From Picochlorum sp. SENEW3 (taxonomy: Eukaryota), in NCBI GenBank assembly GCA_034226945.1, contig CP120462.1:620001-684000 (forward strand): 64,000 nucleotides of DNA, given 5' to 3'. Under the pieces are notes generated by a model. The model was not told the origin of the DNA and ran no database searches. It saw only the letters and a program-made list of their open reading frames with translations. The position numbers and the translations under genes were made by a program. Positions 22,900-55,466 of the stretch are shown here, piece after piece (the stretch's first letter is position 1; each line of letters starts with the position of its first letter).

Positions 22900-24582
22900 A
22901 TGATGCACCAGCAGATTGCTGATTGGTATCCAATGCTGGAAAAGGTCGTGTCAACGCCAACTGCATGGTTGCTGAGCACGGCCGATCGTATTGCTGTTAC
23001 AGTGGGTGTTCCCGAGGGATCACTGCCATTTGAGAAATACAAGGTGTTTATAGAGGCCATTCTGTTGTCTTTTCTGCTCTATGTGGTCCTTGGAGTCTGT
23101 CTCAAATTGGTGAGTGGAATTCTTCGATGGGGTCACGTGGCCTTGAATACCCGTCACGTGCCCAGTGTGTCATCTCTTGAGCACAGAGGCAAGGAAGGGA
23201 ATACTCTGAGGGCATTGATTGATCGGTACATTGTGGTTCCTTTGTTTGGACAGGCGCTGGTGTTGGCCAAGGGATGTCCATGGGAACACATGTATAGGTG
23301 GGTGACGGATCGATCGTTGGTCAAGTTTCGAGTGTTGCATCGAACTGGGATTATTGTGGGTGATCCAAAGGGGATGAAGAGGATTTTCCAGACGGGGTAT
23401 AAGTTGTATGATAAGGATTTGGACTTTAGTTATGGGCCCTTTCTGCCTATTCTTGGGACTGGGTTGGTGACTGCGAATGGCAAGCATTGGCAGAAGCAGA
23501 GATTGTTGATGGCTCCTGCGCTTCGTATTGATATGCTGGATGCTATTTTGCCTATTGCGAAGCGAGCGTCTGAGAGGTTGAGTGAGAAGTTGGAAACGCT
23601 GCGGGGGAAGAGGGTTGCAGTGGATATTGAGGAGGAGTTTCGGTTGCTGACGCTTCAGGTGATTGGAGAGGCGATTCTGAGTCTTGGGCCTAAAGAGTGT
23701 AATGACGTGTTTCCGAGTCTGTATCTGCCGGTGATGGAAGAGTCGAACAGGAGGGTGTTGGCTCCATGGAGGTATTTGTATCCGGTTCAAGCATATCAAT
23801 ATTCCAGTAGGGTGAAGAAGCTTGACACATTTATTAAAGGAATTATTAGACAGAGGAGAGCAGAGAGAAAGAGACAAGGAGATGCATACGTGCAGAAGGA
23901 TGTGCTGGACAAGATTTTGGACTCTGTGGATAAGGGTGGAACTGTGTGGAATGCAGCTGCCGAGACGCAGTTGTGTTATGAGATTAAAACATTCCTGCTT
24001 GCTGGTCACGAGACCAGTGCATCCATGTTGACGTGGACAATTTATGAATTGGCCCGTGGAGATGGCAAGGCGGCTTCCAAGGTGCGAGAGGAAGCCACAG
24101 CATTCCTGAAAAAGCCTGCCACGCTGCAGAGGGAGAATGTAGAAAAGATGCAGTGGACACTGTCGTGTCTGAAAGAAAGTCTTAGAAAGTACTCGGTGGT
24201 CCCAGTTGTCACGAGAGATTTGAATAAAGATGATGAACTGTGTGGTACCCCGTTGCCAAAGGGATCATGGATCATTTGTCATTTGCAGCGGGTGCATCAC
24301 CTGTACAAGGATCCATTGGCATGGAAACCAGACAGATTCATGCCTGGAGGAGAATACGATTCCTTTGATGATGAGATTCGACCGTACATGTTTCTTCCAT
24401 TCATTCAAGGGCCTCGTAATTGTCTTGGGCAGTATTTTGCGCTGATTGAGGCTCGTGTGGTCCTTGGGTCTCTGTGTGAGAAATTCTCCTGGTCCTTGGT
24501 CGACCCAAAGACGCAAGGAGTCACACATCCAACGGTCATTCCGATTGGACCAGTGGGAGGATTAGAAGTGTATGTGGAGTAA
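22900..24582 (+). CDS. Cytochrome P450 monooxygenase (intronless)
   Basis: N-terminal TM helix, WQKQR, I-helix FLLAGHETS, ExxR (KESLR), PDRF, heme motif PFIQGPRNCLG. Confidence 0.95.
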   Translation: MMHQQIADWYPMLEKVVSTPTAWLLSTADRIAVTVGVPEGSLPFEKYKVFIEAILLSFLLYVVLGVCLKLVSGILRWGHVALNTRHVPSVSSLEHRGKEGNTLRALIDRYIVVPLFGQALVLAKGCPWEHMYRWVTDRSLVKFRVLHRTGIIVGDPKGMKRIFQTGYKLYDKDLDFSYGPFLPILGTGLVTANGKHWQKQRLLMAPALRIDMLDAILPIAKRASERLSEKLETLRGKRVAVDIEEEFRLLTLQVIGEAILSLGPKECNDVFPSLYLPVMEESNRRVLAPWRYLYPVQAYQYSSRVKKLDTFIKGIIRQRRAERKRQGDAYVQKDVLDKILDSVDKGGTVWNAAAETQLCYEIKTFLLAGHETSASMLTWTIYELARGDGKAASKVREEATAFLKKPATLQRENVEKMQWTLSCLKESLRKYSVVPVVTRDLNKDDELCGTPLPKGSWIICHLQRVHHLYKDPLAWKPDRFMPGGEYDSFDDEIRPYMFLPFIQGPRNCLGQYFALIEARVVLGSLCEKFSWSLVDPKTQGVTHPTVIPIGPVGGLEVYVE

Positions 24583-24892
24583 ATGCATCAAGGCCACTTG
24601 TGTGGCGACCAGGCGGAAGGTGTGGCTCTCGTGTCCAAAGCGCTTTGCTTAAGCAACAAAATAAGGCGCCCTGAAGATTCAAATCAACAATGGTCTGGCG
24701 TTGTTGATCAAAATCGGCACATGCCACTCAGACTGCACATATATAAAATACGATTGTATTTATATTGATACCTTGACAATTTAAATCATTTTGTTGACTC
24801 AGAAGACTGACTGCTGTCGTTGTTGTTTCTTGAATCGATTGAAAACAACACGCGATACGAATTTTCTTTAAGAGATCGAGGCAAGCAAGACG

Positions 24893-25807
24893 ATGACACG
24901 GCGAGTGGCAAAATTATCAACTGTTTCACTTTCACAGGGGAATGGAGTGAGTCGACGGGGTTCTGCGAGGCATCGTCATCGCCATGCGATTCAAAAGACT
25001 GGGGCAATTGGCAAGCCTGCGATTCGCCGATTGGCGAGGCGAGCTGGTGTGAAGAGGATTAGCCAAGGTATCTATGAAGAGGCTCCTGAAGCATTGAAGA
25101 GGTGGCTGAGGACAATGGTGCACGATGCGACAGTGTATGCTGACCATGCAAAGAGGTTTACAATAACAACGAATGATATTCTGTTGGCGTTGAAGAAGAA
25201 TGGGGTGACCTTGTATGGATATGCCTTTACGGAGAAGAGAGAACGTTTGACGAAGAAGATGACGGCGTCGAGTTTGCAAGCTGCTGCTGCCAAGGTGAAG
25301 GCTCGCAGAGCATCAACAACGCCTGCCAAGGGTGCAGCTGAGAGGAGGGTAGAATCGGTTGCCACACCTGCTCAGGAGCAGCAGCAAGAAGAAGAAGAGA
25401 ATGCTAGTACTCAATTGACGCCAGCGAATATTGTTGAAAATAGGCGTGTTTCTGTAGGGAAGAAGAAGGCAACACCTCAGAGTGGAAGGAGGAATGCACT
25501 GGCACCAAAAACACCACAGGATGTGGCACAGAATGATGGCGGGGTTACAAGTGTGTCACCGGAAAGGGCACAGGACATTCAAACGAGTCTTAGTTCGTTC
25601 AGAGATACTGTTATTGCAAGACAGGCGTCTAGTGATGCTCCAGTGCCAAAGGTTGTGGACTGGGTGTCTGCGCATTTGCTTGGCCGAGGAAAAGAGGCGT
25701 GTTCAATGGCAGAAATGGATATTGTGCTGGAAGCATTGAGCGATAGAGACGCATTGATGGTTACCCATGATGATGAGCATTCCTTCAAGACTGTTTGGTT
25801 TATATAG
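24893..25807 (+). CDS. Divergent histone H4-like protein with ~190-aa C-terminal extension
   Basis: KPAIRRLARRAGVKRISQGIYEE..DATVYADHAKRFTITTNDILLALKKNGVTLYGY aligns to the H4 core. The ORF continues without a stop to 304 aa. Confidence 0.85.
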   Translation: MTRRVAKLSTVSLSQGNGVSRRGSARHRHRHAIQKTGAIGKPAIRRLARRAGVKRISQGIYEEAPEALKRWLRTMVHDATVYADHAKRFTITTNDILLALKKNGVTLYGYAFTEKRERLTKKMTASSLQAAAAKVKARRASTTPAKGAAERRVESVATPAQEQQQEEEENASTQLTPANIVENRRVSVGKKKATPQSGRRNALAPKTPQDVAQNDGGVTSVSPERAQDIQTSLSSFRDTVIARQASSDAPVPKVVDWVSAHLLGRGKEACSMAEMDIVLEALSDRDALMVTHDDEHSFKTVWFI

Positions 25808-25871
25808 TGTTCTGGTTTTCTTCTTTGTAATTGTGCATTAAACATGTGGAAAAATACAATATCATGTGTGA

Positions 25872-28800
25872 TCAGAAATAGTCTTGCAGAGGAACTTGCT
25901 CGAGTCCCCCATCCTTCATACCTCTGAGAGCTTGTACTGTAGCGCGGGCACCTGCGACTGTTGTGATGAGTGGGACCTTGGCTCCCAGGGCAAGGCGGCG
26001 GAGGTCTTTTCCATCTCTGACATCAGCCTCATCTCCAGCAGTGGTGATGAACATCATTTGGATATCCCCATTCTTGAGCAGATCTCCAGCATTTGGACGG
26101 CCTTCTTGAATCTTGAGGATGGTCTCCACGTTTGGTACACCAGCTGCTGTCAATGCTGCACCAGTGTTTTGTGTGGCAAGAATGCCATAACCCATCTCTG
26201 CCAATTCCTTGGCAATTGGCACTGCTGCTTCCTTGTACTGATCCATCATGGAAATGAAGATATTTCCTGATTCTGGGAGTTTCTGTCCGGCCGCAATGGC
26301 CGCCTTGGCATATGCTTTCGCAAAGCTGGTATCCAATCCCATGACTTCACCAGTAGATCGCATCTCAGGTCCGAGGAGCGTGTCAGCTCCTGGGAATTTA
26401 TCGAATGGCAAGACGGCCTCTTTCACAGCGACATGATCTAACTTCAACTCCTCTGTGAAATTGAGATCTTTGAGTGTCTTTCCGGACATGATCAGTGATG
26501 CATACTTGGCAAGTGGGTGGCCAATGGCTTTTGCCACGAATGGGACTGTTCTGGATGCTCTGGGATTGGCCTCGATAATGTAAACCTGATTATCCTGAAC
26601 TGCGTATTGGATATTGATCAAACCAATGACTCCAAGTTCTCTGGCAATTTTTGGAGTCCAATCTCGGATAACGTCCAAACACTCCTCGCTGATGGTCTGT
26701 GGTGGAATGGAGCATGCTGAATCTCCAGAGTGGACACCAGCCTGCTCAATATGCTGCATGATACCACAAATCACAACATTGCCTTCCGCATCTGCCAAAG
26801 CATCTACATCCAACTCGTCAGCCCTGTCGAGATATTTATCCACCAACACGGGCCTCTCTGGATCAACTTCTACAGCAGTGTTGATGTATCGTGACACATC
26901 CTTCTCAGAGTACACAATTTCCATGGCTCTTCCACCCAACACAAATGATGGGCGAACCATGACAGGGAAACCGAGATTCTTTGCAATACTCACGGCCTCT
27001 TCCTCATTTGTCGCAACTCCTCCGGGTGGCTGCCTAATATCAAGCTTATTCAAAAGAGCCATCCACCTATCTCTATCCTCAGCATCATCAATGGAGTCTG
27101 GGTGTGTACCCCAGATTTTGACATTTCCTTGTCCCGAAGCAGCTGGAATTGGATTCTCTTCCAACCACCTGGCCAACGGTGTGGCCAATTTCAGGGGTGT
27201 CTGTCCACCGAATTGGACAATGATGCCATCTGGGCGCTCCTTCTCAATCACATTGAGCACATCCTCAACAGTCAATGGCTCAAAGTACAAGCGGGAGGAT
27301 GTATCATAATCTGTCGAAACAGTCTCAGGGTTGGAGTTCATCATAATTGTTTCATATCCAGCATCTCTGAGAGAAAATGATGCATGGCAGCAACAGTAAT
27401 CAAACTCAATTCCCTGACCAATTCTGTTTGGCCCTCCACCAAGAATCAAAACTTTTTTATTCGTGGACGAATTGCATTCACATTCACCATCATATGAAGA
27501 ATACATATATGGTGTATCGGCCTGGAACTCTGCGGCGCAGGTATCCACACGCTTCATGGATGGCACGACGCCCAAGGCTGTCCTGGCTGCACGAACAGCA
27601 GCTTGGTCCACGTTCATTGCCATTGCAATCTGTGCATCACTGAATCCTCTCTGCTTAATCTCCCTGAAATCATTCTCACTCAAATCGCTCAATGCCTTTG
27701 TCTTCATCCACTCCTCTGTAACATGCAAGTCATGCATCTGCCTCAAGAACCATGGGTCGATAGAAGTGTACTCGTGGATATCATCCACTGTCATCCCATC
27801 CTCAAATGCTTGCTTAATCACAATCATTCTATCAGGATTTGGTACACGCATGTTGTACACAACCTTGTCGGCTGGAAGTCTCTTCCAATTCTTTGGAAGC
27901 GACCATCCATCAAGTCCAGTCTCCAACGATCTCAAGGCCTTCTGGAATGACTCCTGGAACGTTCTTCCAATAGCCATAGACTCTCCTACAGACTTCATCT
28001 GCGTTGTCAACACGGCTTCAGAACCAGGGAACTTTTCAAAAGCAAATCTGGGAATCTTGGTCACCACGTAATCAATCGATGGCTCGAACGATGCAGGTGT
28101 CTTGAGTGTGATATCATTTGGAATCTGATCAAGCGTGTTTCCGCACGCCAAACGAGCAGCCATCTTTGCAATAGGGAATCCAGTAGCCTTGGAAGCCAAT
28201 GCTGACGAACGCGACACACGTGGATTCATCTCAATAATCACCATATCTCCATTGGCAGGATTGATAGCCATCTGCACATTCGACCCTCCACACTCAACTC
28301 CCATCTCTCTGATAATGGCAACAGACGCATCTCTCAAACGCTGATACTCCTTATCCGTAATTGTCTGAGAAGGAGCAACGGTAATCGAATCTCCTGTATG
28401 AACACCCATAGGATCCACATTCTCAATCGAACAAATAATGACGACATTATCTGCAAGATCCCTCATCACTTCCAACTCATACTCCTTCCATCCCAACAGC
28501 GACTGCTCAATCTGTACCTGAGATGTCATGGACGCATCCAACCCACTCTTGCAAATGGTCATAAACTCGTCCATATTATACGCAATACCTCCTCCTGTTC
28601 CTCCTAGAGTAAACGCTGGTCGAATAATCAAAGGAAACTGCCCAATCTCATCATGCGCCTTGAGCGCCTCTTCCATCGTCGTAGCAATGCAAGACTTTGC
28701 CATTTTCAACCCGAGACGATCCATGGCATCAGCAAACAGCTCCCTATCCTCTGCCTTGTTGATCGACTCCAACTTGGCCCCAATCAACTCCACATTATGC

Positions 28801-29617
28801 TTGTCCAAAATCCCAGCTTCAGACAACCCCTTGGCCAAATTCAACGCCGTCTGACCTCCCATTGTCGGCAAAATGGCATCAGGCTTTTCCTTGATGATGA
28901 TCTTCTCCACCAACTCTGGAGTCATGGGCCCAACATAGGTACGATCAGCAGTCTCTGGATCCGTCATAATAGTTGCTGGATTCGAGTTCACCAAAACCAC
29001 TCGATACCCCTCTGCCTTCAACGCTTTACACGCTTGCGTTCCAGAGTAGTCAAACTCGCATGCCTGCAATCAACCACCCACAACACACATCAACACCCTT
29101 CCTGTACAAGCCCTACACTCGACCCTCGAGGGTTTTGAAAACAACCCACCCATCATCCACCGGCACCCCATCTACCCACTTTTTATATCCGATATAGCAC
29201 ATGCATGCAATATATCACCCAATATACCCATAAAAAGCACCTATACGACACCCAAACGCATGACCAGCCCGATGCAGACCAGACGCATACCTGCCCAATA
29301 ACAATCGGTCCAGCCCCAAGGAGCATAATTGTCTTGATATCAGTCCGTTTCGCCACTCTCTGAACCGCAGTATCCCACGCAGTGAAAGGAACTTGGTCAC
29401 TGGAATCACCAACAGGGGCTGCAACAGCACGACACGTCAAACCTGTCCTTTTCTGTGATCTGACACCCGATGGTACATGTTTCTGTCGGATCAACTGTAT
29501 CCCAGTACTCCATGTCACCCCAGAGGATGGTGTCAGCGACGTCGACCTTGCAAGGACCCCAGCAGCATGCCCTCGTCGTTGAGATGGAGCGTTGACGCAG
29601 CTCGTCGCCGTCTTCAT
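25872..29617 (-). CDS. carB: Carbamoyl-phosphate synthase large chain, plastid-targeted; 2 exons (29617-29291, 29063-25872)
   Basis: Transit peptide, then [79 protein letters not shown] domain. Confidence 0.97.
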
Positions 29618-51449: not shown

Positions 51450-54400
51450 TTATGGAGAATCGGTGAGATCAATGTCGACCGAATTATTTGTCGTCTCCAG
51501 CAATGGAGCGATTCTGGGTTGAGCAACCTTTTTGATTCTCATGGCCTCGAAAATGCTCCTTTGTCTGACGCCTGGTTGCTTCACGGGAGAGTTTGCAGAG
51601 TCCCCTGCAGTTGGGGTAGGACCTGTAAACTTGCCAGTATTTTCCTTGAATACATCGATGGCTGGCTGGGATGCACCAGAACCTGGTGTTGTGAGAACAT
51701 CCCTTTTGGCATCAGGCACCACAGTCTCATCAAATGGTCTAGGATGCACTGTTTTGAATGGGAATGTGCGCATTGCCGGTGTCACATCAGAGGGACCTGC
51801 GATCTTTTCGCTGGCGATAGCAAGCATTGCCAAGATATCCTTGATCCTGTTGACCAAGAGCTGGGCAAGTTTATCATAGCCAGCGTTACTCGACTCTTTC
51901 CATGCCTCGACGGTGATCAACTGCTCCGATAATGGTGGAGCAGCACTTGTGCCCAAGATATGAATTCGGAGCGAAAAGAATGCCTCATCTTCTTTGAGGA
52001 TTGACACGACTTCCGAGGTTATCTTGGAGCCTCTGTTTCGAAGATCCCATCCAGCCTTGCAAATGGCCCTCAGGAGACTTGTATCCAACTTGACTCTATC
52101 CCGGATCCAAAGAGGGGGCACTTTCTTATTGGAGAAGTAAGGGAGGGGGACATTCGGATAGTTTGCCAACCGGGATCTGAGCTCCGTCATGCCCCGTACA
52201 TGCTGGTCGACTTTTTCTGCATTCTTCACAATCCACTCTGGGAGTTTCTTGTCATGGAGTGCTTGAATTGAGGCAATGTCCTCCCATTCGCTGCAAGATT
52301 TGATTTTCGATGGAATATCGGCCAATATTGTATCGACAGCCTTTTCAAAGTCAGCATGAGAATCTTCATATGCCATTTTCTGTTCGTCGCTAATGAAGGG
52401 AGCTGTTCTCCGTTTGGGCTTCTTTGGGGCTTGGTTCACCAGGTCCTCACACAAGGTGCGTAATACCTTTGCCACGCGTTCCACTTGATCTTTTGGATAC
52501 TTTTTATTCACGAAAGTGTCCATGTGGGAAGAGTTCAAAAAGCTCTCCATATCCATACCAAATCTGAGCACACAGTCAAACAACGTGTTGACATCTGAAA
52601 TAGTCCATCGTTTGGTATCCGACTTTTTCGGTTTTTCAGATGGTTTTTTCTGCGGTTTCTTCGTTGGCTGAGCATTCATCTCATCTTCTGAGAAATCAAA
52701 CTCATAATCATCTTGTGACGATGGACGACCTCGTTTCAGCCTCATCTCATTGTAACAAATAGCTCTCTTCTTCCTTGGCGGAAGAATCTGTGGCATGGAT
52801 TCTTGCCTTTTCATGTCCTCGAACGAATTATAGGCGTCTGGTAAAAGCGTTTTCCAAAACTCTTGATCATCTCCTTTTTTCGTAGCTTTTTCACCTTCAA
52901 AAGAAGCAACTGAAAAGGTATTGCCTGCACGTCCTCCAATCTGTCTCTTTTCTGTTCTACTGGAAAGAATCTCATCAATATTTTCAGATTGGAATGCATT
53001 CGTCTCCTCTTCAGCTTTTTCATCCATCTTGAGACAATGTGCCCCGTGCCTGAGAAGTTCAGAAATTCGTTTACCATCGTATTCTGGGTTGTCTTGCCCA
53101 GCTGATTGCAGAGCCATGCCGCCCAAGATTGCCTCATCCAAACCATACTTTCTTGAGGATGCATGGAACAGATTTTCTTCATACGTGTTTTTGCTCACCA
53201 AGCGATATATGGTGACGTCCTTTGTTTGGCCAATCCTGTGGCACCTGGCCATGGCTTGCAAATCATTCTGTGGGTTCCAATCAGAGTCATACAAGATGCA
53301 TGTGTCTGCTGCAGTGAGGGTGATACCTTGACCTCCAGCTTTCGTCGAAAGCAGGAAAATAAAACCATCTTTATCGCTCGAACTATAGCGATCAATAGCA
53401 GCCTGTCTGTCGCGGGAGGATGTGTTTCCATCGATACGTTCAACCGGGAAACCCATCAAACTTGCATAGTCCTCCAGGACATTGAGCATGATCTTAAACT
53501 GGGAGAAGATGAGTACTTTTCTCTTTTCCTGTCGTAACTTTGGTAGAAGTTTATGCAAAAGCTGCATTTTACCACAAGACGAGACCAATAGATCAACCTC
53601 TGCCATGTCCTCTCCAGTCTTTTTTCTATGGCGCTCTGCAAGGTCATCTTCCACACCATCACACAGGAACGGATGGCAGCAGACCTTCCTGAGCTCCATC
53701 GCCACATTCCGCAAAGCTGGTACATTCTTTGCAGATGCTCCACTGAGAAGGACACCAATCTGGTTTTCAAAAATTGCCTTGTAGTATGCACGTTGCTCCT
53801 GTGTCAACTGCACCCAAATGATACATTCCTCCTTCTCTGGAAGTGTCTCGACATCTTCTTTCATTCTTCGCAACAAGATTGGTTTGAGAGCATTTTGAAG
53901 TTCGACAACCTGTTCTGGGGACATTTTATCGGTTGAGCGACCAAACCGATCAAGGAAGTCATCCTCATCATCATACTTTTCTGGATCCAGCAAATTCAGA
54001 ATTCCAAACAACTCTCTGACATTATTTTGAACAGGAGTCCCTGTCAGAAGCAAAATCCATTGGCACGGAATCGCAGCAATAGTATTTCTTGTGGAACCTT
54101 TTGTGCCCTTCATTCTGTGCGCCTCATCGATAATCATAGTCTCCCATTCAATATTTTGAAAAAAGGTTCCATCCCTCATGATATGTTCATACGACGAAAG
54201 AATCACATCTGGCTTGACCACATTAGTTTTGCGATCATTATTGCTCCATATTTCCCATTTATGGATAACTTTCTTATCCTCAGCTGTCCCGCAGTACAAT
54301 ACACAGTTCATTTTAGTCCAAGTTTCAATCTCCCGCTTCCAATGGCCCAGCGTCGTCAGAGGAGCAATCACCAAGAAGGGACCATTCACATGTCCGAATT

Positions 54401-55466
54401 GCCTCTGGAACTCCAAGGTAGCAATCGACTGAGCGGTTTTACCCAGTCCCATCTCATCTCCCAAAATGCAATTCCTTCCAGTGTACCAGTTCTTACTCAT
54501 CCATTTCAGTGACTCAACCTGGTAATCCCTCAATTTCCTGCCATTTTCAAACTGTGGAACAGCAGAGAGATTAATTGCATCAGAGTTCTGATTATTCTTG
54601 GAATACATTCGCAACTTTTCCGCTTCAGCCTTTTTATTTTCCTCGTATCTGGCAAGCACAGCTTGATCTTCTGGTGACGCAAGATCTTCTGCAGTCTCCC
54701 ATGTACATTCTGAATAGTTCAAGCCACACCACTTTACCAGATATTCCTGCGTCTTGGTATTTTCCGTCACAATCTTTTCCGCAACCAACCAATCAGGATG
54801 GATTCCATCCTCGAGGTCACCATACGGATCCACCTTGCCTTGTTCCAATCTCTTCTCATACCCTCGAATCAAAGACCCCTTATCCATGGCAAACAGGTCG
54901 TCTCTATCCACCCACTCGGTTTTCCTGTAACTCTTTCCCTTATACTTGACCCTCATTTCCCTCTTACCAGCACCAGCCTTTCGCGAATGCAGGATGCTTT
55001 CAACAGAGGCAAGACCACCAGGAGCCACAGTATCTGTCGATTCCTCCTCCATCAGCTCATCGTCCTCGCTGTCACTCATCAACACCTGATATCCTCTTTT
55101 ACCACCAGACCTTTTACTATGTGCAAACATGGCGTCCTCATCCTCATCATCACTCCACACGGTGTCAATGGCATAGTTCACCTTTGAGCGTGCAGCTCTC
55201 CTTGGACGCTCAGACTCTTTGGCAACCGTCACATCATTCTTGCCCTCCTCCCCATCCGATGCATCGTTCAATTCCAAGTCGTGCTCCCCATTGTCATCAG
55301 ACGACACGTCATCCTCCTCCAGGATCTCTTCCTCCTCATCCACATGAGAGTCAGCACTCTCACTCTCTGATCGTACTCTACAAGACTCTTCAGCAGCACC
55401 ATCCGCCGGACCTACATCCCCGCATACAAATTGCGAAAGAGGCACCGCTTCCTTGCTGTCAACCAT
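51450..55466 (-). CDS. CHD-family chromatin remodeler (double chromodomain plus SNF2 ATPase)
   Basis: Chromodomains (VKYKGKSY..EWV; YLVKWCGLNYSECTWE), LRDYQ, DEMGLGKT, DEAH, LTGTPVQNN, DSDWNPQNDLQAMARCHRIGQ. ATG taken at 55466. Confidence 0.93.
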   Translation of the reverse strand: MVDSKEAVPLSQFVCGDVGPADGAAEESCRVRSESESADSHVDEEEEILEEDDVSSDDNGEHDLELNDASDGEEGKNDVTVAKESERPRRAARSKVNYAIDTVWSDDEDEDAMFAHSKRSGGKRGYQVLMSDSEDDELMEEESTDTVAPGGLASVESILHSRKAGAGKREMRVKYKGKSYRKTEWVDRDDLFAMDKGSLIRGYEKRLEQGKVDPYGDLEDGIHPDWLVAEKIVTENTKTQEYLVKWCGLNYSECTWETAEDLASPEDQAVLARYEENKKAEAEKLRMYSKNNQNSDAINLSAVPQFENGRKLRDYQVESLKWMSKNWYTGRNCILGDEMGLGKTAQSIATLEFQRQFGHVNGPFLVIAPLTTLGHWKREIETWTKMNCVLYCGTAEDKKVIHKWEIWSNNDRKTNVVKPDVILSSYEHIMRDGTFFQNIEWETMIIDEAHRMKGTKGSTRNTIAAIPCQWILLLTGTPVQNNVRELFGILNLLDPEKYDDEDDFLDRFGRSTDKMSPEQVVELQNALKPILLRRMKEDVETLPEKEECIIWVQLTQEQRAYYKAIFENQIGVLLSGASAKNVPALRNVAMELRKVCCHPFLCDGVEDDLAERHRKKTGEDMAEVDLLVSSCGKMQLLHKLLPKLRQEKRKVLIFSQFKIMLNVLEDYASLMGFPVERIDGNTSSRDRQAAIDRYSSSDKDGFIFLLSTKAGGQGITLTAADTCILYDSDWNPQNDLQAMARCHRIGQTKDVTIYRLVSKNTYEENLFHASSRKYGLDEAILGGMALQSAGQDNPEYDGKRISELLRHGAHCLKMDEKAEEETNAFQSENIDEILSSRTEKRQIGGRAGNTFSVASFEGEKATKKGDDQEFWKTLLPDAYNSFEDMKRQESMPQILPPRKKRAICYNEMRLKRGRPSSQDDYEFDFSEDEMNAQPTKKPQKKPSEKPKKSDTKRWTISDVNTLFDCVLRFGMDMESFLNSSHMDTFVNKKYPKDQVERVAKVLRTLCEDLVNQAPKKPKRRTAPFISDEQKMAYEDSHADFEKAVDTILADIPSKIKSCSEWEDIASIQALHDKKLPEWIVKNAEKVDQHVRGMTELRSRLANYPNVPLPYFSNKKVPPLWIRDRVKLDTSLLRAICKAGWDLRNRGSKITSEVVSILKEDEAFFSLRIHILGTSAAPPLSEQLITVEAWKESSNAGYDKLAQLLVNRIKDILAMLAIASEKIAGPSDVTPAMRTFPFKTVHPRPFDETVVPDAKRDVLTTPGSGASQPAIDVFKENTGKFTGPTPTAGDSANSPVKQPGVRQRSIFEAMRIKKVAQPRIAPLLETTNNSVDIDLTDSP

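Follow-up and report, generated by a model that had tools for sequence, protein, structure and literature searches.

Histone H4 is the least variable of the core histones, and few variants of it are known. An open reading frame of the green alga Picochlorum, located in the 64-kb stretch of DNA that was analysed as a whole (the window), begins as a recognizable H4 and runs on into a second folded part. It raises the question of whether such a protein is a genuine, expressed histone variant and what its additional part might do on chromatin. A preliminary description had proposed a divergent H4 joined by a linker with CDK sites to a probable winged helix, and had suggested ties to replication, repair or centromeres. 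The features of the gene and of its product are collected in Table 1.

Table 1. Features of the fusion gene and its product, with positions in the window and residues in the encoded protein.
Feature	Residues	Positions	Strand	Description
Whole open reading frame	304 aa + stop	24893..25807	+	intronless; H4 paralog fused to winged helix
N-terminal tail	1-40	24893..25012	+	Arg/His-rich, pI 12, disordered (AlphaFold2 pLDDT <50)
Histone fold	41-110	25013..25222	+	alpha1 41-50, alpha2 60-85, alpha3 93-102, then TLYGY (AlphaFold2)
Conserved basic extension	111-141	25223..25315	+	predicted helices 111-120 and 125-141; pI 11.6
Disordered linker	142-217	25316..25543	+	S/T-P at T143, T158, T176, T194, T207
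TPAK	143-146	25319..25330	+	full CDK consensus; orthologs retain [ST]Px[KR]
Acidic winged-helix domain	218-304	25544..25804	+	H-S-H-H-S-S; MCM3-like type suggested by Pfam
SPER	222-225	25556..25567	+	full CDK consensus; caps helix 1 of the winged helix
TGTAA		25826..25830	+	19 nt 3' of the stop codon

Gene structure and expression

The gene is an uninterrupted frame of 304 codons from ATG to TAG. Its product ends with EMDIVLEALSDRDALMVTHDDEHSFKTVWFI (last residues KTVWFI) and is 99% identical to M9435_006067 of Picochlorum sp. BPE23, a protein annotated as hypothetical. The intronless frame and the downstream TGTAA of the preliminary description are both present in the sequence, and the latter we take to be a probable green-algal polyadenylation signal. 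Also in line with that description, no histone 3' stem-loop was detected with Rfam at E≤10 in positions 24500-26100, where four sub-threshold chance matches were the only output, and tblastn with H3 and H4 over the 64-kb window returned neither an H3 nor a second H4. Within the window, the gene thus shows neither of two marks of replication-dependent histone genes, a 3' stem-loop and a place in a histone gene cluster.

RNA evidence came from several sequencing runs. In the oligo-dT metatranscriptome X14 we found contigs 100% identical to the locus at 24993-25151 and 25173-25330, the stretches of the frame without X14 cover being uninformative. The second of these contigs covers the sequence from alpha3 to TPAK, TLYGY and the extension included, and thereby spans the junction between the histone fold and the added part. 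Contigs free of joints tile the frame in two further runs, X2 (25110-25877) and X3 (24353-25205 and 25176-25835). These runs were taken as RNA by a guess, because their depth varies several-fold among adjacent genes, and contigs as such reveal neither transcript ends nor one single mRNA. One X3 contig stops at 25835, and reads of that run are missing over 25841-25974, which is a weak hint of a transcript end. Run X1 is probably DNA and was left out of the expression evidence. Transcripts that stop or are spliced after the histone fold were not what we found: contigs cross the junction, and no splice joint was seen. The oligo-dT contigs, the TGTAA and the absent stem-loop support a polyadenylated, non-clustered gene, the type that had been suggested at the outset.

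The immediate neighbours of the frame encode a cytochrome P450 and the large chain of carbamoyl-phosphate synthase. The window has a G+C content of about 46-48% and is dense with intron-poor eukaryotic housekeeping genes.

A histone H4 fold with a rewritten tail

As the preliminary description had claimed, an H4 core occupies the first ~110 residues, and three kinds of search agreed on this. A phmmer search against PDB sequences aligned residues 16-110 with histone H4 (E 8.7e-23), and all 60 matches listed were H4. BLASTP to canonical H4, for which the H4 part of protein P0141 served, gave 47 identical residues out of 92 (51%). Foldseek with the full-length model listed 50 matches, every one of them a nucleosomal H4 chain, with a best identity among these of 58% over 72 columns at an rmsd of ~2 Å. 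The canonical H4 end, expected soon after TLYGFGG at ~102 aa, is absent; LYGY falls at residues 107-110 and the protein continues for 194 residues after TLYGY, close to the ~190 estimated before.

In the tail, residues 1-40 contain the string RGSARHRH, the basic patch of H4 has become RHRHRH, and the only lysines are K7 and K35, so that equivalents of K5, K8, K12, K16 and K20 are lacking, as was already noted from the sequence. With them, this species has lost the classical sites of acetylation and methylation. Parachlorella is among the relatives that retain KRHRK in the tail.

Within the fold, a set of residues is invariant across the family of fusion proteins: R46 to R50, G52 to R55, L72, R88, T90, D95, L100, K101, G104, L107 and G109. 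By the BLASTP alignment to canonical H4 these are H4 R36-R40, G42-R45, L62, R78, T80, D85, L90, K91, G94, L97 and G99. The family shares with canonical H4 the RRLARR-GVKR and HAKR stretches, T80, D85, LK(91), G94 and TLYG, whereas G41 is replaced by A throughout, and the fusion gene is single, of the polyadenylated type and not placed beside an H3 gene. By the same alignment, several H4 positions facing H2B or DNA are altered in the protein (K79F, Y88L, R95V and M84N).

Because histone folds also occur in other proteins of the TAF6, TAF9, CENP-S and CENP-T kind, the window protein might be a member of such a non-histone family and no H4 paralog. Weak Pfam matches could be quoted in favour, namely TAF at 23.6 bits (cutoff 21), CENP-S at 26.8 and TFIID-31kDa at 23.1. 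Yet canonical H4, used as a control, matches the same families, so these matches, like that to CENP-T_C, merely restate likeness to H4. Moreover, the PDB matches listed are all H4, at E 1e-22, and Pfam reported neither the C-terminal domain of TAF6 nor any domain specific to another of these families, which makes membership in a non-histone family scarcely credible. Two members were considered by name and rejected. For TAF6, Pfam gave no match to its C-terminal HEAT-domain family at E≤10, the C-terminus being a winged helix instead; for CENP-T, the fold is N-terminal, and the CENP-T_C score is 28.2 bits vs. 69.7 for canonical H4. The earlier statement that the folds of TAF6 and CENP-T are much less H4-like needs one correction: Pfam matches to CENP-T_C and TAF do exist, although they are generic to H4.

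Predicted pairing with histone H3

When residues 20-145 were modelled together with a canonical H3, the complex scored 0.83, and the highest of 3 controls scored 0.01. In the calibration of the tool, 51 of 78 solved complexes attained this mark, as did 2 of 108 mismatched pairs. At least 85% of the contacts agreed between runs, the partner pLDDT was at least 66, and the interface comprised residues 37-105. The helices of the extension made no confident contact with H3. Since the H3-H4 complex has been solved many times, the high score may stem from memorized structures. The model points to an H3 interface that is still H4-like rather than to binding as such, and we consider it probable that the fold pairs with H3.

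Basic extension and linker with CDK sites

Directly after the fold, the extension carries the family motif EKRxRLTxxL...AAA and is predicted with an AlphaFold2 pLDDT of ~90 at residues 121-140. The linker that follows is ~75 aa long in the window protein and 65-139 aa long across most relatives. Six S/T-P sites are present in the protein, two of which (TPAK and SPER) have the full CDK consensus; the disordered S/T-P linker and both full sites had been pointed out before, and orthologs were found to keep both sites. Most sequences of the Picochlorum-like and P0014 types carry a [ST]Px[KR] motif ~30 residues past the fold. Among the 38 sequences whose domain start could be located, 31 have [ST]PxR immediately ahead of the winged helix, many of the sequences behind these conservation counts being close relatives. 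R225 is invariant across alignment A1.

The C-terminal winged helix and its family

In the full-length AlphaFold2 model, disorder from residue 142 to ~218 gives way to a compact winged helix at 223-303. Structure prediction of the domain alone, with 24 aligned sequences, bore out the domain type that had been surmised: a confident winged helix was obtained (pLDDT 93.8, pTM 0.84), with the elements H8-24, E33-35, H36-49, H57-69, E73-78 and E83-88. The domain has a pI of 4.76 in the window protein and of 4.2-5.7 in 23 of 24 members, and because it is acidic, protein binding is favoured over DNA binding.

Sequence comparison pointed to one family. The Pfam family PF23191 (MCM3-like winged helix) scored 20.6 bits on the whole window protein and 23.9 bits on the domain alone, below the gathering cutoff of 27, and 30.2 bits, above that cutoff, on ortholog P0027. 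It was matched by 14 of the 24 members at E≤0.01 (best E 1.2e-7) and was the sole Pfam family so matched.

Comparison of structures was less specific. With Foldseek, the winged helix of ORC1 (7ctf_A) was the single match at E≤0.001, and the best domain matches were ORC1, TFIIIC tau138, Cdt1 and Cdc6. VIA-align gave Z scores of 9.9 to 7.6 over many unrelated winged helices, led in a near tie by the cullin WHB domain, Cdc6 and ESCRT-II (Z 9.9-9.6). MCM3 was absent from the 50 matches listed by Foldseek and from the 50 listed by VIA-align. As the structure searches return only generic winged helices, MCM3 cannot be told apart from other families by the fold.

Profile searches against PDB sequences returned no MCM3 or winged-helix chain for the domain profile A4 (best E 0.39, an enoyl-ACP reductase) and no winged-helix chain for the domain of P0027 (best E 0.16, a triosephosphate isomerase). 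Profile A2 found H4 only; its alignment included the histone fold, and the result is silent on the winged helix. Language-model neighbours were the winged-helix clusters of MCM7, RPA_C, MCM3 and MCM6 at 0.84-0.79, values under the 0.9 level that serve as leads only. RPA_C gave no Pfam match to the C-terminal domain and is no more than a weak lead from the language model.

The preliminary description had likened the terminus to the winged helices of MCM3 and RPA32. The winged helix itself and the likeness to MCM3, through PF23191, were borne out; for RPA32 no corresponding Pfam match was obtained. In our reading of these sequence matches, the domain is probably an MCM-type C-terminal winged helix that is closest to MCM3, with the copy of the window under the Pfam cutoff. 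Besides the PF23191 match, its acidity and its C-terminal place behind a long flexible linker recall the winged helix described for MCM3 in PMC12933075. MCM3 carries the domain on an AAA+ helicase core, the fusion protein on a histone fold.

A disordered region rich in CDK sites beside a histone fold also brings to mind an adaptor of the centromere or kinetochore, in which the fold would pair with a CenH3- or CENP-type partner while linker and winged helix recruit outer components. In CENP-T, too, a long disordered region with CDK sites is joined to a histone fold, and the Pfam score for CENP-T_C lies marginally above its cutoff of 28.1 bits. The order of the parts is reversed in CENP-T, however, and the fold of the fusion protein is that of H4. 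Canonical H4 yields the same Pfam list with a much higher CENP-T_C score, identity to H4 is 51-58%, no kinetochore domain was found, and the winged helix matches an MCM-type family. We regard such an adaptor as very improbable.

Conservation and origin of the fusion

A homolog search among proteins of 167-532 aa gave 117 matches, 29 of which cover at least 65% of the query. In an exhaustive search of representatives, at least 13 clusters among the 150 listed matched the C-terminal part. When longer proteins were searched with the domain, all 23 matches belonged to the same H4-fused family, a weak test as the candidates came through a word filter. The fusion frame recurs across numerous species, whose copies are 36-99% identical to it and conserve its two ends.

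A profile of the core domain only was built from 17 core domains and tried on held-out sequences with an imposed database size of 1e6. It detected P0130 (E 2.5e-19), Parachlorella (P0032, E 9.4e-15), P0131 (E 7e-7) and Myrmecia (P0143, E 1e-4), and was marginal for P0188 (E 0.086) and for Tetraselmis (P0113, E 0.67). The C-terminus of P0038 was undetected by this profile, and three canonical-H4 fusion controls gave no match to it.

Named sources of the fusion are Picochlorum (three genomes), Parachlorella kessleri, Auxenochlorella protothecoides, [Myrmecia] bisecta and Tetraselmis striata. The carriers thus belong to the Trebouxiophyceae and, less securely, to the Chlorodendrophyceae (Tetraselmis). 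The search for orthologs in which both parts are kept, which the preliminary description had put forward as a check, was accordingly positive in Picochlorum, Parachlorella, Auxenochlorella and Myrmecia and weaker in Tetraselmis. The fusion is hidden in annotation because databases label these proteins 'histone H4' or 'hypothetical protein'; the copy of A. protothecoides, of 290 aa, is annotated 'Histone H4'. We are nearly certain that the conserved fusion is real.

An artefact, either an H4 pseudogene read through into an unrelated frame or two merged genes, has nothing in its favour beyond the unusual architecture. The same single frame occurs in many species with both ends kept, RNA contigs span the junction, and strain differences within the frame are mostly synonymous (7 synonymous vs. 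4 non-synonymous); the probability of an artefact is practically negligible.

A tree of the histone fold (61 rows, 76 columns) was computed without near-identical family rows and without 38 of the 83 distinct non-family rows, the first 45 being used. Of the 16 family rows, 13 formed one group, though weakly supported (38/80); P0143 and the pair P0113 and P0188 had no firm place among canonical H4. A tree based on the fold alone is too short to settle a single origin of the fusion family.

A proposed role on chromatin

We propose that the gene encodes an expressed H4 variant that is anchored through H3 and whose winged helix docks onto a protein client under the control of CDK, the identity of the client being left open. 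To this reading as a whole we assign a probability of roughly 45%. The single-copy nuclear gene encodes a lineage-specific H4 paralog with an added module, and the H4-like fold of this protein would form a handshake dimer with an H3-type histone and would enter DNA-wrapped, nucleosome-like particles. The acidic winged helix, held on a leash from chromatin, would be a protein-docking site and not a DNA binder. CDK, acting at the [ST]-P-x-R helix cap and at the post-fold [ST]-P-x-[KR], would switch the docking on or off.

Nucleosome-like assembly appears probable because the family keeps the equivalents of H4 R36-R45, R78, T80, H75, K91 and T96-G99, positions that in the nucleosome face DNA, H2B and the docking strand of H2A. 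Octamer assembly is not assured, because K79, Y88, R95 and M84 are changed and the extension emerges where H2A docks. We judge the chances that the fusion protein is nucleosomal to be about even.

The same features could suit a soluble histone mimic or escort that binds H3 off chromatin, with the winged helix as the link between this dimer and either a chaperone or the replisome. Its partner may also be another histone-fold protein, and it would never be a stable subunit of the nucleosome. Such a role would agree with the loss of the tail lysines used for deposition and signalling, with the altered equivalents of K79, Y88 and R95, with a conserved basic extension after TLYGY at the place of H2A docking, and with a gene outside any histone cluster. 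However, the family-wide invariance of the R36-R45, R78 and T80 equivalents and of the TLYG strand is, going by the structure of the nucleosome, hard to explain without DNA wrapping, and we consider a role off chromatin unlikely.

CDK regulation of the fusion protein, to which the two conserved motifs point, we put forward with some reserve, at a little under even odds. As regards the client, the Mcm3 winged helix binds ORC-Cdc6 according to the available text of PMC7395460, and in that of PMC12933075 the MCM3 winged helix is described as latching onto MCM2. Because of these two interactions, proteins of replication licensing or of the replisome would be the likeliest clients. A replication-linked role, suggested by this analogy, is nevertheless on the doubtful side. 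In its most specific form, the proposal would be that ORC-Cdc6, MCM2 or both meet an Mcm3-type winged helix on nucleosomes with this H4 variant, which would so mark, promote or block licensing at particular sites, with a CDK switch once per cycle at the conserved [ST]-P-x-R cap; this specific form we hold to be improbable.

Comparison with known histone variants

Rare, lineage-specific H4 paralogs with altered tails are known also elsewhere, in the form of H4E of ascomycetes, H4.V of trypanosomes, H4G of hominids and H4.V of Oryza, as far as the available texts on them describe. H4E, a nuclear protein that interacts with H3, is likewise extended at both termini (PMC10878826). As presented in the accessible portions of the sources, these known variants depart from H4 in their tails or in single residues. 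No folded non-histone domain was found for them in those portions, whereas the fusion protein bears a winged helix of 87 aa.

The closest parallel in design is macroH2A, which consists of an H2A fold, a basic linker and a macro domain. In both, a core-histone fold with a linker would display from chromatin a globular domain that binds a protein or ligand. The difference is that H2A is combined with a macro domain there and H4 with a winged helix here, in a known range of core chlorophytes. An H4 paralog with a replication-type winged helix on a leash of CDK sites would thus be the H4 counterpart of macroH2A. In the available text of a survey of chromatin evolution (10.1101/2021.11.30.470311), macroH2A is named as a major variant and an H4-winged-helix fusion is not described. 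Our search of the literature likewise found no description of the fusion or of its locus tags.

If nucleosomal, the protein would connect the biology of histone variants directly with the recruitment of proteins, and possibly with the licensing of origins. Should the licensing proposal be true, it would represent a route to origin specification by way of a histone variant, and the protein would be the first variant of H4 to carry a folded effector domain. Two hosts of the fusion, Picochlorum and Auxenochlorella, are small and transformable, which makes tagging and knockout of the gene practical.

Gene structure and tail evolution in relatives

Between ...LKRNG and TLYGY, the gene calls of several relatives of the H4-paralog protein (P0017, P0132, P0133, P0020–P0022, P0026, P0027, P0036 and P0037) are either broken or contain an in-frame insert. 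At the break, upstream fragments finish in ...KRNGVYV and downstream ones begin with ...CRTLYGY. This pattern suggests a conserved intron in these relatives, five residues before the H4 homology ends; the gene in the window has no intron at this site.

The homologous protein P0147 (103 aa) terminates at ...LKRNG and seems to represent exon 1 of a member of the H4-fold/winged-helix family. Its tail is more H4-like (GLGKGIGKK...GLKRHRK), from which it seems that the N-terminal tail of the family has been rewritten gradually and that the lysine loss in Picochlorum is derived.

Some Auxenochlorella protothecoides models (544 and 1013 aa) join the H4-like gene to the adjoining ribosomal protein L23A gene, and entries named RPL23A are also found within the Auxenochlorella cluster of P0029. 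This looks like an annotation merge and not a further fusion.

PIP-box-like motif in the winged helix

Within the family, conservation is highest in the motif RAQDIQxSLSxFRD (window 25570–25603, residues 227–237). It includes Q230-x-x-L233-x-x-F236, which matches seven of the eight positions of the PCNA-interacting PIP box, the eighth being R and not F/Y. Since the motif sits within the first helix of the folded C-terminal domain, this likeness may be coincidental.

Genomic neighborhood and strain differences

Coordinates of features in the window
Feature	Position	Strand	Details
Site equivalent to the break or insert in relatives	about 25204–25209		
Carbamoyl-phosphate synthase large-chain gene	25872–28967	minus	
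CHD-type chromatin remodeller	51453–55466	minus	1338 aa; chromo domain, SNF2 domain, helicase C

The CHD-type remodeller lies 26 kb from the H4-paralog gene, with no evident link between the two. The carbamoyl-phosphate synthase gene is convergent with the H4-paralog gene, with 64 bases between the stop codons (window 25807–25872). Contigs of run X2, presumed to be RNA from another strain, span this gap (25110–25877 and 25849–25974); the two transcripts may therefore overlap at their 3′ ends.

In other strains (sequencing runs X1–X3) a CAA insertion was observed after window 25384, which adds one glutamine to the Gln/Glu-rich part of the linker and agrees with the 305-aa length of the homologs P0002 and P0003. 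The same runs carry an 8-base deletion at window 24643, in the intergenic region upstream of the gene.
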